Sequence record: MW748999.1
Reading direction: 5' to 3' (one strand)
Source of the DNA: Escherichia phage vB_EcoM_Skers
DNA: 64,000 bases
A program made the position numbers and the translations under genes. Positions 33,139 to 37,875 of this stretch are shown piece by piece (within the stretch, counting starts at the first letter, position 1; each line of letters opens with the position of its first letter). The notes beneath the pieces were generated by a model, which saw only the letters and a program-made list of their open reading frames with translations, made no database searches and was not told the DNA's origin.

Positions 33139-33897
33139 TCATTCTCCGTCAGTTCGTTTCAGGTATTCCAATGCCGCATATAATCTTTGAGGATCGTCTT
33201 TGAACATCCCTAATCCGGCATTACATTTTCCACAAAGAACACCTCTTATCTTACCAGTCTTATGATTATGGTCAAGATGTTTCCACTTTTGGCGTTTTCT
33301 CTCGCCGCATCGTTCATTTATGAATTTTACACCGCATATCTCGCAATTGTCAACTCTGCCTAAAATTTCTAACGCTTCTCTTTTTGATATTTTTATACCA
33401 TTTTCGGCATGATGATATGGCCTATCTAGTTCTCGCTCTCGCTTCTCAAACAATCGACACTCATCAGAACAATACTTTTGAGATGCGTTTATTGCAACAA
33501 ATGGTTTACCACATTTAGCGCATTCTCGTTCAATCTTTATGTTTTGTGCCTGGTCCAACGATGCGCAACGAGAACAGCAAAATTTATGATAGCCTCTAGA
33601 GTATGTATGATAATTTACAGGATTTGGGCATCTTGCACACTTAACTATTCCTGTTATTCCGTGGCGCAATCTATAAACAGCCTCGTTATATGGTTGTTGA
33701 TTTCTGAGACCTCCATTACAGAACTTAAACTCATTCCTTATAATCTGAAATTCCGCAGGATACAATTTTTCCATTTCTGGAATTTTATTTTCTTTAAAAA
33801 GATTTGAGTTTAGTCTATTTCCGCTTTTCGCCTCCAGAACATCAACAATAAACTTTTTGATGTTCACTTTTCTCTCTCCAATACATAACATAACCAT
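33139..33897 (-). CDS. Endonuclease VII-type nuclease with Cys-rich zinc-ribbon N-terminal region; probable free-standing homing endonuclease
   Basis: C-terminal HLDHNHKTGKIRGVLCGKCNAGLGMF matches the T4 endo VII (gp49) catalytic motif; N-terminal CxxC pairs CARCP...CCSRC, CAKCG...CSDEC. Confidence 0.65.
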   Translation of the reverse strand: MVMLCIGERKVNIKKFIVDVLEAKSGNRLNSNLFKENKIPEMEKLYPAEFQIIRNEFKFCNGGLRNQQPYNEAVYRLRHGITGIVKCARCPNPVNYHTYSRGYHKFCCSRCASLDQAQNIKIERECAKCGKPFVAINASQKYCSDECRLFEKRERELDRPYHHAENGIKISKREALEILGRVDNCEICGVKFINERCGERKRQKWKHLDHNHKTGKIRGVLCGKCNAGLGMFKDDPQRLYAALEYLKRTDGE

Positions 33898-33969
33898 AAC
33901 TTACTGCAACCGCCACAAAGACGGCTGCAACAATCATATTAAAAATTGAGTGATTGTCAAGTATATGAC

Positions 33970-34143
33970 TCATGACACGCGCACATTTTTATCATAGTAC
34001 CCGCCATTAATCCCGCGCGGGGCAGTTAATCCCTGTTTGCATTCTTTACCACATTCAGGGCATTCTGCCTTTTCACGCTCGGAAATTTTGCGGATTTTCT
34101 GAAATTGACCGTGTTCTTCACAAGAATAATCGTATAATGGCAT
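33970..34143 (-). CDS. FmdB-family zinc-ribbon protein
   Basis: MPLYDYSCEEHGQFQ...CPECG matches the FmdB zinc-ribbon signature; start at ATG 34143 with SD AAGGGG (track start 34224). Confidence 0.5.
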   Translation of the reverse strand: MPLYDYSCEEHGQFQKIRKISEREKAECPECGKECKQGLTAPRGINGGYYDKNVRVS

Positions 34144-34144
34144 A

Positions 34145-34813
34145 TTATCCCCTTTGTTTCTTAACTGAATTTGGATCTGGATTTTCTGGTAGGTCTTCCA
34201 GACCCATAGCATAACGTTGTGCATAGATTAGCATAAGAATATCGCGAGCGCAATCATGAATTGCATCATGTGCGATAAAACCATCTAGCGTACCCATTGG
34301 TAACGGACACTCACACATCCCGCGATGCATCAATGTACGCTCAATGGCGGTGCGAACATCTCGGATATTCCAGAATCGCACAGGTTCAAGGCTGAACGTC
34401 TCTCGTGTATTGTGTGCACGGCGGATCATATCAACTAGTAACGGAATATCAAACGCATTACCGCGTGACCACAATACGGATTTAACCGGATCTACTCCTA
34501 CGGCTTCACAGAATGCGTTAAAACGCGCTAAACCTTCTTTAGTTGATACTTCCGTACCATTTGTGATTAATTGCTTTCTCATGCCTTCTGAGGCGGTATT
34601 CTTCCACCATTCAACCACACCATGATCAAACACCCTTACACCTTTCTGGGAAGGAATATCAAATTTTACCAGAAAGGAATTGTCCACCAGTTCTTTAAAT
34701 GTAGGTGGATTGTGCGGATCTTCTTTAAATCCGATTGCCGCCATATTGATCACCGCCCCATCAGGCGGATAACCTAAACTTTCAAAGTCAATCATTAAAT
34801 CCACTGGAAGCAT
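34145..34813 (-). CDS. dexA: exonuclease A (DnaQ-like 3'-5' exonuclease)
   Basis: Matches T4 DexA by recall (MIDFESLG, HGVVEWWKN, CPLPMGTLDGFIAHDAIHDCARDI, YAMGLEDLP); start at ATG 34813 with SD GGAGG (track start 34885). Confidence 0.85.
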   Translation of the reverse strand: MLPVDLMIDFESLGYPPDGAVINMAAIGFKEDPHNPPTFKELVDNSFLVKFDIPSQKGVRVFDHGVVEWWKNTASEGMRKQLITNGTEVSTKEGLARFNAFCEAVGVDPVKSVLWSRGNAFDIPLLVDMIRRAHNTRETFSLEPVRFWNIRDVRTAIERTLMHRGMCECPLPMGTLDGFIAHDAIHDCARDILMLIYAQRYAMGLEDLPENPDPNSVKKQRG

Positions 34814-34814
34814 T

Positions 34815-35057
34815 TTAAATATCCTCCGCGATATGCCGGAACAACTCCAGATCGTTTTTATCCAGAATGAAACCGCTACAATCAATAATCCCGTTACCGT
34901 AATTATCGGTTAACAGTCGGTCCGTTGCCATGTATGCGCGTACTTTGTTGTTAAAATTCATTACATGTTGTGCATAGTCACAATGAATCTTTTGACGGTT
35001 CCACGCGACAATTGATTGTAGATGTATTACATTAGCCATATTATTAATAACAACCAT
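34815..35057 (-). CDS. hypothetical protein (80 aa), third of three tandem small genes
   Basis: Track ORF 34815..35120; ATG 35057 preceded by SD GCGAGGG and the TGATATG stop-start junction. Confidence 0.5.
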   Translation of the reverse strand: MVVINNMANVIHLQSIVAWNRQKIHCDYAQHVMNFNNKVRAYMATDRLLTDNYGNGIIDCSGFILDKNDLELFRHIAEDI

Positions 35058-35290
35058 ATCAAAACCCTCGCTTAGTGGAATGTTCTGGCATTTTATTGAT
35101 ACATACAGCTTGGTAGTCACGAGATTTTTTTGACGAATTAAGAGCTACAGCCAAAAAATCCTGTAACTGTTCGTTTGTCATTTTTGGCTTACACCGCGTA
35201 TCTAAACCCTTCGTTCTTCTAGCTTCATTAGCCATATCAAAAACCTCGCTTAGTGAAATGCTCGATCATTTTATTGATACATGCAGCTTC
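35053..35290. repeat. two ~58-bp direct repeats (about 85% identical) at 35053-35110 and 35231-35290 spanning consecutive stop/start junctions
   Basis: ccatatcaaaaccctcgcttagtggaatgttctggcattttattgatacatacagctt versus ccatatcaaaaacctcgcttagtgaaatgctcgatcattttattgatacatgcagctt. Confidence 0.7.
35059..35235 (-). CDS. hypothetical small protein (58 aa), shares C-terminal tail with the next gene
   Basis: MANEARRTKGLDTRCKPK...AVCINKMPEHSTKRGF; stop-start TGATATG; not in ORF track. Confidence 0.45.
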   Translation of the reverse strand: MANEARRTKGLDTRCKPKMTNEQLQDFLAVALNSSKKSRDYQAVCINKMPEHSTKRGF

Positions 35291-35404
35291 ACTATCGCCG
35301 GACACGTTCCAGCCGTATAGACCCCATCTAAAGCACATGGTAACAGTTCCATTGTGACGGCTTACCGTCACATCATTAAATTCTGGGATACTTCGCATAA
35401 TCAT
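35237..35404 (-). CDS. hypothetical small protein (55 aa)
   Basis: MIMRSIPEFNDVTVSRHNGTV...AACINKMIEHFTKRGF; SD GAGGAA overlapping the dda stop; not in ORF track. Confidence 0.45.
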   Translation of the reverse strand: MIMRSIPEFNDVTVSRHNGTVTMCFRWGLYGWNVSGDSEAACINKMIEHFTKRGF

Positions 35405-35414
35405 AATAATTTCC

Positions 35415-36806
35415 TCAAATATAGTCTACTCGATACCGCGCACGGGTAACACCCACATATAATAACTGCATTGCCAATTCAAAGTCAACATTGTCTGTAC
35501 ACATGCAAGGAGTATACAGGAACACGCGGTCTACGCTGATCCCTTGTGACTTATGAATGGTGCAAGCTGGTAATGCTTTTACATTCAAGAACATACGCTT
35601 CATCGTCCAGAAGGAATCCCAATCTGGTTTAAATTTTGGATTCTCTTTCTTCATTTCGCGATATTGTCCGGCGACCGTATTCAGATAGATAGAGAAAATG
35701 TTCTTCTGACGTTGTTCTGTCAGAATGTTGATTTCTACTAAATCTGGTTTATCTGTAGTGATTCCGACTGCATCTAAACCGACTTTCTGATTTAGGATTT
35801 CTTTGTCTTCGTCATCATCGACGCTTTCCACTTTCAGAGTATAGCCTAAAACTGGTTGCGGATCTACCCCCGTGCAACGTAATGTAAATTCGCGCGGGAT
35901 GACCTCTTTAACTCGGATCATCTCACCATTGTTAAAAATAACATTGGGAATCTTCTTCCCGCGTTCATCTCGCAGATATTCGATCAATGGTTCCTGAGTA
36001 ACCAGAATTTCATCTACAATCACTGGTTCATCGGTGTTATAAACGCGCTTACGCACAATTTCATTGAGTTTTTCGACGCTCTTGTTAGTGTAGGCCAGAA
36101 TACGGTTTTCTAGCAGGTCTTCCGGCGTTTTAACGGTTTCGAAATAATGCTTCATAAACTCCGGCAGAGTTGAGCTATGGAATACACCCTCGTTGCCGCA
36201 CTGCTTTTCGAATACCCATTTACCATTACGGACAGCGGTCGCCACATCAATGATCGGTGCATTAGATCGTTTAATTTCTGTCAACTCCACGTTTTGAAAA
36301 TTTTCATCCGTGAAGAAAGGAGAGATCGACGTTGCACCGCTCGGATCAACTGGTCGTAACTGGTGCGGATCGCCAACTGCAATAACAACAATTCGACCGT
36401 TGATACTCTTCATGAGAATATCAAATAGTTTCTTATCGACCATACTCGCTTCATCAACAATGATGATCTGAACATCATCTAGCTTAGGAGTATCTTTTTG
36501 TTCAAATACTTGAGTATCTTCATAGTTGGTTGGATTTAGTCGCAGTAGTGCATGTAAAGTAAATGCTTGACGACCTACCGCCTTACTCAAAACTTTTTTA
36601 GCCTGGTGGGTAGGCGTTGCCAAAACCACACCAGTTACACCACGGCGGACCATTTCCTGAACAATGAATTTCATCATTGCGGTTTTACCAGTACCCGCCG
36701 CACCACGGACAGTTGTATGCTTCTTTTGTTCAATACGTTTCATTAGAACATCAAAAGCATGTTTTTGCCCGTCTGTTAACATATCGAAAGTTAATACTCT
36801 GCTCAT
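35415..36806 (-). CDS. dda: Dda DNA helicase (SF1B)
   Basis: Walker A GAAGTGKT, IIIVDEASMVD, KRSNAPIIDVATAVRNGKW, YVGVTRAR; strong match to T4 Dda by recall. Confidence 0.9.
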   Translation of the reverse strand: MSRVLTFDMLTDGQKHAFDVLMKRIEQKKHTTVRGAAGTGKTAMMKFIVQEMVRRGVTGVVLATPTHQAKKVLSKAVGRQAFTLHALLRLNPTNYEDTQVFEQKDTPKLDDVQIIIVDEASMVDKKLFDILMKSINGRIVVIAVGDPHQLRPVDPSGATSISPFFTDENFQNVELTEIKRSNAPIIDVATAVRNGKWVFEKQCGNEGVFHSSTLPEFMKHYFETVKTPEDLLENRILAYTNKSVEKLNEIVRKRVYNTDEPVIVDEILVTQEPLIEYLRDERGKKIPNVIFNNGEMIRVKEVIPREFTLRCTGVDPQPVLGYTLKVESVDDDEDKEILNQKVGLDAVGITTDKPDLVEINILTEQRQKNIFSIYLNTVAGQYREMKKENPKFKPDWDSFWTMKRMFLNVKALPACTIHKSQGISVDRVFLYTPCMCTDNVDFELAMQLLYVGVTRARYRVDYI

Positions 36807-37156
36807 TATCCTAAAATCCTCACCTTGCGAACACAGATAGTATTGAGTTCTCGCCGTACCCGTTCTTTTTCATATTCAGGAATTTTATATTCGATACCAT
36901 CCCGAACAATTTCAGAAGACCGGATTATGCCAAATTTTCGTTTAGGTACAACCTTGTATTTCGGTTCACCCGCCAATAGACTCTCACAATAATCTATCTG
37001 ATCACACATTGACGCTAACGCAGCATCATGTGTTTCGCAAGTTAGGACGCGACCCTTCGCGTCCACTGAGTATTGAAAGAATCCGTCTTTATCACGATAA
37101 CATACAGCAAATACATGCATTATAAACCTACCTTCGCTTTCATCAATTCGATCCAC
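36806..37156 (-). CDS. hypothetical protein (116 aa)
   Basis: ORF track. Confidence 0.5.
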   Translation of the reverse strand: MDRIDESEGRFIMHVFAVCYRDKDGFFQYSVDAKGRVLTCETHDAALASMCDQIDYCESLLAGEPKYKVVPKRKFGIIRSSEIVRDGIEYKIPEYEKERVRRELNTICVRKVRILG

Positions 37157-37875
37157 GACGCATCAATCGGAAGCCCGTATTTCACGCGTTCTTTTTGTGC
37201 TGGCGTTAAGTTCTCATACTTAGAAAGAGATTCAATCAAAACGCTGGTATATTTTAGCACGATTTCGGTATTGTTTGCAATAGCCTTAAGTTTTTCTTCT
37301 TTCTTGTTGATTTCGCTAAGGGCTTGCTTGAGATCTGCAATTTTCTGATAACGTTCTTCCATACGTAAGAGAGTATTTTTAATCGCTCGCTCGGCTGCCT
37401 CTGCTTTCTCCGGTTCGTTGTGCTTTTTGTGGCGCTCTATTGCTAATTTCTTTTCTTCGATTGCCATTTCCTGATTTTTGATGCGATTCTCGTTAAGTTC
37501 GATCCACTCGATGTACTTCGCACGTAGGGCAATTTCATCATCAGAAAGTTTACCGTTAGTTCCTAGTTCCTGGATCTCTTTAAGAGATTCGATAGTGTGA
37601 TTGCCACGGAAAGAATTGTATTTCAGTTTAACCGGAATTACATTGCCATCAACATATCCCAGATTGCAATCAATGCGCTCTAAGGAGAGTCCGTCATCAC
37701 CTTCACCGAAAGCCTCACCTGAATAGGCACAATGAGTCTGGCGGTAAATGTTACGCACAGTGACTAAGCTCATAGAGAAGTCTTTGTTGCGACGTGAAGC
37801 ACCAGCCATGATAGAGTTCAGCCGGAAAACAACCAGCGCCAATTCTTCGTTAGATTTAAAAGCAAACAGTTTCAT
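37120..37875 (-). CDS. hypothetical protein with long coiled-coil C-terminal half (occupies the T4 srd position)
   Basis: ORF track; SD AAGGAG; N-terminal Cys/His segment HCAYSGEAF...LERIDCNLGYVDGNVIP, then a Glu/Lys-rich heptad region. Confidence 0.5.
   Translation of the reverse strand: MKLFAFKSNEELALVVFRLNSIMAGASRRNKDFSMSLVTVRNIYRQTHCAYSGEAFGEGDDGLSLERIDCNLGYVDGNVIPVKLKYNSFRGNHTIESLKEIQELGTNGKLSDDEIALRAKYIEWIELNENRIKNQEMAIEEKKLAIERHKKHNEPEKAEAAERAIKNTLLRMEERYQKIADLKQALSEINKKEEKLKAIANNTEIVLKYTSVLIESLSKYENLTPAQKERVKYGLPIDASWIELMKAKVGL

Follow-up and report, generated by a model that had tools for sequence, protein, structure and literature searches.

How two otherwise unrelated small phage proteins came to share one C-terminal tail, each followed by the same stop-start junction, is the question posed by a short interval of the Escherichia phage vB_EcoM_Skers (MW748999.1), of which a 64,000-nt stretch (hereafter the window) was analysed. 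The interval lies in the dda-dexA early gene block of a Krischvirus, a T4-type coliphage of the RB49/Phi1/JSE-like group, and comprises three predicted micro-genes on the minus strand, the strand of all genes, repeats and signals given below by window coordinates: gene 1 (55 aa; 35237..35404), the middle gene (58 aa; 35059..35235) and gene 3 (80 aa; 34815..35057). We consider it probable (roughly 0.8) that the locus is explained by the capture of a plasmid gene through two microhomologies, with duplication of 58 bp. If so, it presents an unusually legible case of gene gain in a T4-type phage, in which the donor, the microhomology on either side and the duplication scar are all still recognisable, and in which the captured product would be translationally plugged in and yet removable again without trace.

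The duplicated junction

The three genes are joined by two direct copies of a 58-nt repeat. Copy A (35232..35289) runs from AAGCTG through the tail codons and the Shine-Dalgarno (SD) sequence GAGG to TGA, T and ATGG, and copy B (35054..35111) consists of the duplicated tail and junction; a repeat search found the two identical at 51/58 positions (88%), with their starts 178 nt apart. Read in order, the repeat holds about 16 last codons (A-x-C-I-N-K-M-x-E-H-x-T-K-R-G-F), the embedded GAGG, the stop TGA, a single T and the ATGG of the next open reading frame (ORF). The SD of the middle gene (35244..35247) sits within the tail codons K-R-G, 8 nt before the ATG, and its counterpart for gene 3 lies at 35066-35069; ribosome-binding-site features are annotated at both places in Ec_Makalu_003. 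The best ungapped self-match in 34815-35404 scored 37, against 9.1 +/- 1.2 (maximum 15) for 200 dinucleotide shuffles, and the 3' 24 nt of the repeat occur exactly twice in the window, where 0 occurrences are expected.

A first-pass annotation, made from the letters of the window, had reported a repeat pair of about 58 bp, which stands, with about 85% identity and some 15 codons of the upstream gene, figures that are now 88% and about 16 sense codons plus the stop. It had also called TGATATG a stop-start overlap; in fact the TGA stop is separated from the ATG by a single T, with no overlap. Its observation that two unrelated small proteins have a common C-terminal tail holds, as the 55-aa and 58-aa proteins both terminate in CINKMxEHxTKRGF, while the PHROG cross-hit between them is confined to the last 21 residues and the gene bodies are without similarity.

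The junction module was found nowhere else in the window or among IMG/VR and JGI metagenome contigs, where no contig carries more than two copies and those only at this locus. A scan of 33800-37600 returned 11 promoter-like sites, a count equal to that in shuffled sequence, of which 0 fall inside 35054-35111 or 35232-35289; the same scan placed no terminator-like site inside either repeat copy, and the terminator counts likewise equalled those of shuffles. RNA folding gave a weak hairpin for copy A (z about -1.9) and none for copy B (z = +0.5). At the 3' end of gene 1 (35232-35300) an imperfect RNA hairpin with 20-nt arms is possible, the equivalent of which copy B cannot form. The idea of a coupling hairpin at the junctions was dropped, since on the author's inspection of the minimum free energy structure the type-II substitutions are not compensatory.

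A plasmid homologue and its boundaries

When complete E. coli genomes were searched by blastn with the 178-bp unit, two 3.1-kb E. coli plasmids matched, NZ_AP022094.1 and NZ_CP145632.1. The plasmid-homologous segment (35106..35242) corresponds to positions 94-227 of NZ_AP022094.1 (L038 in our collection) and covers a plasmid ORF with its ribosome-binding region, at 89.05% identity over 137 columns (E 5e-46); by blastn the window contains no further plasmid segment beyond 35106-35242. The plasmid feature is a 50-aa ORF (WP_024046379.1; MANEVRRTKRLDTRRKPKMTNEQLLAFLAAGINASKNRDYQADITLEAHH), to which the phage middle protein aligns in the same frame from Met1 to residue 43 (...RDYQA), with one extra in-frame codon. 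On this alignment the middle gene reads as a chimera, in which residues 1-43 are plasmid ORF and residues 44-58 a copy of the gene 1 tail.

Both limits of the homology carry short identities. Upstream, the homology ends in the ribosome-binding region (AGGTTT.GATATGG), the plasmid having AAGGTTTCGATATGG and then CTAATG where the phage has GAGGTTTTTGATATGG and then CTAATG; the left microhomology GATATGG (35232..35238), which includes the start codon, is common to the phage junction and the start of the plasmid ORF. Downstream, the homology runs to CCAAGCTG, after which the plasmid continues with ATATCACT and the phage with the gene 1 tail; here the right microhomology AAGCTG (35106..35111), in frame (GCT = Ala), is common to the plasmid ORF and the start of that tail. 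The same hexamer is found at 35284-35289, at the beginning of the tail in gene 1 itself and again in that frame (GAA GCT GCA TGT...). The 58-nt repeat opens with AAGCTG, closes with GATATGG and spans exactly the stretch between the two junctions, and because the ends of the repeat coincide with the ends of the plasmid homology, the repeat is best read as an insertion scar and not as a prior recombination module. An external donor, identities at both junctions and a duplicate bounded by those junctions, the three marks of microhomology-mediated capture with target duplication, are all found here. Another candidate for the junction microhomology, the 10-mer CATGTATCAA, which also stands at the 3' end of a Gamaleyavirus gene, was superseded by the closer plasmid donor, in which homology ends at AAGCTG.

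Direction of transfer and ownership of the tail

The plasmid ORF is complete and has a conserved C-terminus of its own (DITLEAHH in E. coli, DIVVEAHH in Serratia). In 8/8 contexts read the order is a divergent HTH_36 gene, the 50-aa ORF and, 36 nt further on, a 172-aa gene, and 3 plasmid records likewise have the ORF ahead of this gene; the ORF is indexed in 1307 blocks, while the GTDB representative genomes contain no relatives of it. A homologue on a Serratia plasmid has 82% protein identity and the same context. The phage gene nests within this plasmid diversity, because in DNA it shares 89% identity with the plasmid copy of E. coli, as against about 70% with that of Serratia. The complete ORF in its conserved context, the Serratia homologue, the nesting and the chimeric build of the phage copy all point to transfer from plasmid to phage.

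The tail, for its part, belongs to gene 1. Distant gene 1 homologues recovered by an exhaustive HMMER search keep it (P0133, ending in ADCINNMVEYFTEGTR, and P0136, ending in AECINKMVEHFTK), and an AlphaFold2 model of gene 1 (predicted local distance difference test score, pLDDT, 78) is a compact fold of four strands and a C-terminal helix, residues 39-53, that corresponds to the tail. The tail is thus native to gene 1 and a by-product on the middle gene. In a fold search of the gene 1 model against BFVD and PDB the sole match was its own orthologue. Gene 1 residues ~16-43 (NGTVTMCFRWGLYGWNVSG) also match repeated units in very long proteins, namely P0132 (up to 10 stretches), P0134 and P0137 (~2150 aa), a match suggesting that gene 1 is similar to one unit of a beta-hairpin repeat.

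A proposed history of the locus

The ancestor would have carried gene 1 and then, a single base beyond the gene 1 stop, gene 3, whose SD GAGG lay within the last codons of gene 1. A 50-codon ORF would then have been copied in from a small enterobacterial plasmid by way of two microhomology-guided switches: the phage strand would have left its template at GATATGG, where the start region of gene 3 resembles that of the plasmid ORF (AGGTTTCGATATGG), copied codons 1-43 of the plasmid ORF and re-entered the phage at AAGCTG, in frame and 58 nt upstream of the exit. Because re-entry lay upstream of the exit, those 58 nt (gene 1 tail, SD, stop and start) would have been duplicated, with a chimeric 58-aa middle gene and an intact gene 3 initiation region as the outcome. 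Later, recombination or slippage across the 58-bp homology would remove exactly 178 bp and restore the two-gene state; the repeats also undergo gene conversion with one another. We infer the direction and the mechanism of the capture from the arrangement of these parts; template switching and break-join are indistinguishable from the sequence.

Presence and absence among relatives

At 94-99% the 2.8-kb interval matches 58 phage records in GenBank, every one a Krischvirus (RB49/Phi1/JSE/GEC-3S group). Of these 58, 17 carry the 120 nt that are unique to the middle gene, and in the remaining listed records the interval measures 2623-2624 bp, as against 2801 bp with the middle gene. In an alignment of 24 genomes (16 GenBank records, 3 IMG/VR contigs, 4 ENA/Logan contigs and the window), 12 have three genes; in the other 12 exactly the 178-bp unit between the repeats is absent, and a single intact junction is left. 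The repeat-bounded presence and absence expected by the first-pass annotation is therefore borne out, and is the opposite of the finding it had named as contrary, the same three genes throughout related genomes.

The two states are scattered across neighbour-joining trees of dda, gene 1, gene 3 and dexA, and close pairs differ in state: the window and LF73P4 (0.4% apart in dda), 011D4 and E26, Delraymugoa-pEJ01 and kaaroe-TB34, ECD7 and MIZ4. Each of the two gene 1 haplotypes is found in both states, the flanks are mosaic, and the most divergent lineage, IMGVR_3300005711, is in the two-gene state. Relative to the sampled diversity the insert is old, because the divergence of the middle gene, at most 7.5% among phages, is much the same as that of its flanks (7.5% vs 6% in dda for the ENA_k141 lineage, with similar values for Makalu003). 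A possible second kind of cassette, on contig L008 (ENA k119_185182) at 2501-2650, was set aside as probably a chimeric metagenome assembly; there the gene 1 tail is lost after residue 38 and unrelated DNA follows.

Depending on the genome, copies A and B differ at 1-7 of their 58 positions, from 1/58 in Makalu003 to 7/58 in the window. Copy B of Makalu003 carries the type-II codons of copy A (ATC GAA TAT TTC), a pattern that indicates gene conversion between the repeat copies. In other genomes the changes in copy B turn Ile into Pro, Thr or Ser and Phe into Ser. The middle ORF is full length in 8/12 three-gene genomes, and the CINKM..H.TKRGF residues are kept in 8/12 middle genes; homopolymer frameshifts shorten the ORF in the other four genomes (ECD7, 39 aa; 011D4, 54 aa; pEJ01, 29 aa; Makalu003, 48 aa), and some of these frameshift variants recur on several contigs. 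Gene 1, in contrast, is intact in 24/24 genomes. Given the substitutions in copy B and the frameshifts in 4/12, as against a gene 1 that is always intact, the tail of the middle gene is free of gene-1-like constraint, which is in turn evidence against the suggestion that the shared tail serves as a common interaction peptide: it is native to gene 1, where it is modelled as a helix, and on the middle gene it is substituted or frameshifted off. The cassette is a dispensable, segregating polymorphism.

In the two-gene genomes LF73P4, kaaroe and TB34 the 5' part of the junction is that of a type-I copy A, and its GGG is one that the three-gene genomes nearest to them have in copy B. A crossover between A and B within ACTAAGCGAGG would give this pattern, of which one synonymous site is the basis. 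Recurrent deletion and shuffling of an ancestral empty allele are inseparable here, and homologous recombination would suffice for both.

Alternative explanations

The first-pass annotation had taken the middle gene for a cassette that was inserted, or duplicated, by recombination between junction modules. Insertion is upheld by the repeat-bounded presence and absence together with the plasmid homology; the two routes proposed for it are not. Shuffling of cassettes between homologous modules that existed beforehand, with the tail kept in both proteins as an interaction peptide, would account for one tail on two unrelated bodies, for the repeat-bounded polymorphism and for the tail residues retained in 8/12 middle genes. 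We nevertheless regard it as improbable, given that the module is present at this locus only (window, IMG/VR and JGI metagenomes), that the coincidence of repeat ends with plasmid-homology ends makes copy B a product of the insertion, that the tail of the middle gene has been altered (Ile to Pro/Thr/Ser, Phe to Ser) or frameshifted off in 4/12, and that the tail is modelled as an integral helix of gene 1. Tandem duplication of resident gene 1 or gene 3, with divergence of all but the tail, would fit the common tail and the 12-nt ATATGGCTAATG found both where the middle gene starts and 18 nt inside gene 3, but it is very improbable in view of PHROG cross-hits that reach only the last 21 residues, a similarity that ends abruptly at AAGCTG and a body that is 89% DNA-identical to the plasmid ORF. 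Transfer in the reverse direction, in which a Krischvirus or an N4-like phage was the source of the plasmid ORF, would be in keeping with the entry of phage early genes into other replicons and with the presence of a module of the middle protein in N4 gp6-like proteins as well; it has a slim chance at most, since the plasmid ORF is complete, with a C-terminus conserved between E. coli and Serratia and in an HTH / ORF / YafO-toxin context, since the phage copy is the one fused to its neighbour's tail and flanked by a duplication, and since the E. coli plasmid is closer to the phage copy than to the Serratia plasmid copy.

Several points weigh against capture of the plasmid gene as set out above. 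The microhomologies are short (7 and 6 nt) and the exact crossover points are beyond proof; the last 7 residues of the plasmid ORF are missing from the phage protein; the capture would be old, the middle gene having diverged much like dda, and a near-identical donor is absent; and, as to function, neither the plasmid ORF nor the phage protein has a match in Pfam, NCBIfam or PADLOC, be it to a known antitoxin family (Phd/YefM-type YafN or AbrB/MazE, for example) or to any other. Moreover, 12/12 two-gene junctions are copy-A-like at the Ile-Glu-His/Tyr-Phe codons, an outcome not obviously expected of many independent deletions with crossovers placed at random; such junctions fit selection on the gene 1 tail or a persisting ancestral allele. 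The latter leads to a reading of the polymorphism that comes not far short of even odds, namely that the two-gene genomes never had the insert and that an ancestral empty allele spread by homologous recombination in co-infections. The two-gene state of IMGVR_3300005711, the most divergent lineage, and the copy-A-like form of every two-gene junction agree with it, as do the mosaic flanks, the occurrence of both gene 1 haplotypes in both states and a polymorphic gene with an endonuclease VII domain 1.2 kb away, while the close pairs of opposite state (the window and LF73P4, 0.4% apart in dda, and three further pairings) and the A x B crossover pattern of LF73P4, kaaroe and TB34, resting on one synonymous site, speak for loss. 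A comparable weight, somewhat below one half, goes to the view that the middle gene is functionally a neutral passenger, without a role or untranslated: it is absent from about 70% of relatives, frameshifted in 4/12 carriers, modelled at pLDDT 60 and without family annotation. Set against this are an intact 58-codon ORF kept in lineages 6-7% apart, a proper SD at 8 nt, the same module built independently into N4-like early proteins and a source gene in the antitoxin position of a toxin operon. If the functional part of the proposal fails, ordinary gene capture with an indel polymorphism remains.

A possible function

On the plasmid, the 172-aa gene that follows the ORF scores 35.2 bits against Pfam YafO_toxin (cut-off 25) and is named a YafO-family type II toxin by NCBI, and the 50-aa ORF, directly upstream of and co-oriented with this YafO-type gene, occupies the usual antitoxin position. 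At L038:254-300, the 36-nt spacer contains an inverted repeat (AATCCCTG...CAGGGATT) that extends to the toxin ATG, so placed that a predicted spacer hairpin could occlude the toxin gene start. No YafO-like gene was found in the window by tblastn, which gave chance-level hits only (E >= 0.12), and the phage copy would for that reason be an orphan.

A module, R.KP.MTNEQLQ(E/D)F....L..SK, is common to the middle protein and the Gamaleyavirus subfamily of N4 gp6-like early proteins (phrog_7648). The link has an E of 0.02 database-wide by tblastn, with a reciprocal search that returns only Schitoviridae and Krischvirus; hhalign places it at 97% probability with the module-bearing subfamily (E 8.9e-11 and 2.7e-11), and phrog_37371 gives a cross-hit at E 6.8e-6. 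With the broad gp6-like alignment the signal is diluted and the hhalign probability is only 12.6%. Membership of the middle gene in the gp6-like family was rejected, as only residues 6-37 align and the gp6 N-terminus MRKSLIMGTKEDV and C-terminus IVTFNHPCIK are absent; both termini are likewise absent from the plasmid ORF. Of the N4 gp6-like early proteins of the Schitoviridae, the Gamaleyavirus subfamily shares the module, and the conserved termini of the family set it apart. Also rejected was a likeness of the frameshifted Makalu end (...HVSIK and stop) to that of gp6 (...HPCIK and stop), for which p = 0.07 and the plasmid alignment indicates that the 58-aa frame is the original one.

The N4 gp6-like proteins themselves have invariant N- and C-termini and a hypervariable centre, in which the position of the MTNEQLQEF module varies (P0039, P0040; L026:1201-1359, L007:1453-1632), as if the family were a scaffold into which peptides can be inserted. 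The string TGTTATTAA occurs in frame both in gene 3 codons 2-5 (V-V-I-N; 35043-35054) and in codons 12-15 of the Gamaleyavirus gp6-like gene (D-V-I-K; L007 ~1486-1497), a sharing that is probably due to chance in AT-rich sequence.

That two unrelated coliphage groups carry a piece of a plasmid ORF that stands ahead of a toxin gene suggests a captured antidote. It is enticing to speculate that the captured protein is an orphan antitoxin that would neutralise the plasmid YafO-type toxin during infection, a proposal that we hold tentatively, at closer to one chance in three than to an even one. Slightly more doubtful is the wider view in which Krischviruses and, independently, Gamaleyaviruses would use the module to neutralise a YafO-family toxin of very common small enterobacterial plasmids, the plasmid operon being an unrecognised abortive-infection defence and the cassette a host-range determinant. 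Were it true, the 178-bp cassette would be gained and lost according to plasmid carriage by the hosts, and the plasmid 50-aa ORF with its YafO-family toxin operon would be a phage defence whose antidote was copied by two unrelated coliphage groups. The gene 1 tail, in place of the last 7 residues, might stabilise the candidate antitoxin. A literature search on N4 gp6 function and on the plasmid ORF/YafO pair found nothing.

Relation to known systems

The accretion of morons and the capture of genes by illegitimate recombination in phages are associated with Hendrix and colleagues and are discussed in PMC2839356. As with morons, one foreign gene has been added between two resident genes. Unlike morons, the middle gene has no promoter or terminator of its own, follows the orientation of its neighbours, is fused in frame to a neighbour's tail and has both junction microhomologies still readable.

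Phage-encoded antitoxins include pseudo-ToxI of phage phiTE and TifA of T4. The T4 protein Dmd, too, is described as a phage-encoded antitoxin, directed against RnlA/LsoA (PMC5308261). Like Dmd, the middle gene would encode an early protein of ~60 aa in a T4-type phage, possibly a stand-in for a labile host antitoxin after host shut-off. To our knowledge Dmd has no sequence homology to the host antitoxin, whereas the phage gene described here is a direct, 89%-identical copy of an ORF in antitoxin position, and a candidate antitoxin.

The middle gene is the same gene, in the same place, as ORFan009.1 of phage phi1, which Arbiol et al. (2010; PMC2839356) list as a phi1 gene that RB49 lacks; in their main text neither a flanking repeat nor a source or mechanism is given for it. 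The same paper describes PeSL cassettes, in which short direct repeats flank a small ORFan and recombination excises it precisely, leaving one hybrid repeat, such that close phages differ (PMC2839356). The present cassette is similar in its flanking repeats, in its precise loss with a single hybrid repeat left behind and in the differences between close relatives. It differs in that PeSL repeats are intergenic, consist of a sigma-70-like early promoter and a stem-loop terminator and are spread over many places in a genome, whereas those found here are coding sequence with a ribosome-binding site and a stop-start junction and contain neither promoter nor terminator, in that there are two copies at one locus (of the 64-kb window) and in that the second copy would be made by the insertion. 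Because its repeats are without a promoter- or terminator-like site, ORFan009.1 is not apparently PeSL-derived, and capture from a plasmid would account for one such differential ORFan between phi1 and RB49. That these phages differ by this ORFan was already known; what appears to be new is its origin on a plasmid, the scar at its junctions and its connection to a YafO-toxin operon.

Neighbouring genes and further observations

Upstream of gene 1 lies dda (35415..36806), a 463-aa ORF annotated as Dda DNA helicase in JSE, Phi1 and RB49, and downstream of gene 3 lies dexA (34145..34816), which encodes exonuclease A (phrog_255 exonuclease, E 2.6e-72) and is annotated as dexA in relatives. Gene 1 is the homologue of RB49/phi1 ORF010 (phrog_16162, E 4.5e-44), the middle gene that of phi1 ORFan009.1 (phi1p009.1; phrog_37371, E 7.7e-44) and gene 3 that of RB49/phi1 ORF009 (phrog_15021, E 8.2e-58); gene 3 is a coding sequence in relatives, whose annotation was followed in placing its ATG at 35057. 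In Phi1 the three are named ORF010, ORF009.1 and ORF009, and JSE and RB49 have ORF010 and ORF009 only. The three micro-proteins belong to three separate PHROG families, each with function unassigned, and the AlphaFold2 model of the middle protein (pLDDT 60) is uninformative. An Rfam scan of 33500-37500 at E <= 1 gave zero matches.

About 1.2 kb downstream of the cassette, at 33139-33897, a Pfam Endonuclease_7 domain (E 6e-16) is encoded by a 252-aa ORF. This ORF occurs in only 12 phage records of the collection, all named Escherichia or Shigella phages, and looks like a polymorphic free-standing endonuclease gene. It could be a driver of local gene conversion and help to explain the mosaic flanks. 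An exact 12-mer, ATATGGCTAATG, is present at 35226-35237 (the start of the middle gene) and again at 35030-35041 (18 nt into gene 3); it varies among genomes, with GTGGCT in JSE and RB49 and ATCTCT in divergent lineages, and the pair may reflect chance or a small conversion tract. Finally, some 1.1 kb from the cassette, at 33901-33960, a near-consensus promoter (TTGACA-16-TATGAT, 11/12) is followed directly by a 14-bp stem-loop, and this combination of promoter and stem-loop is the anatomy that Arbiol et al. termed PeSL.

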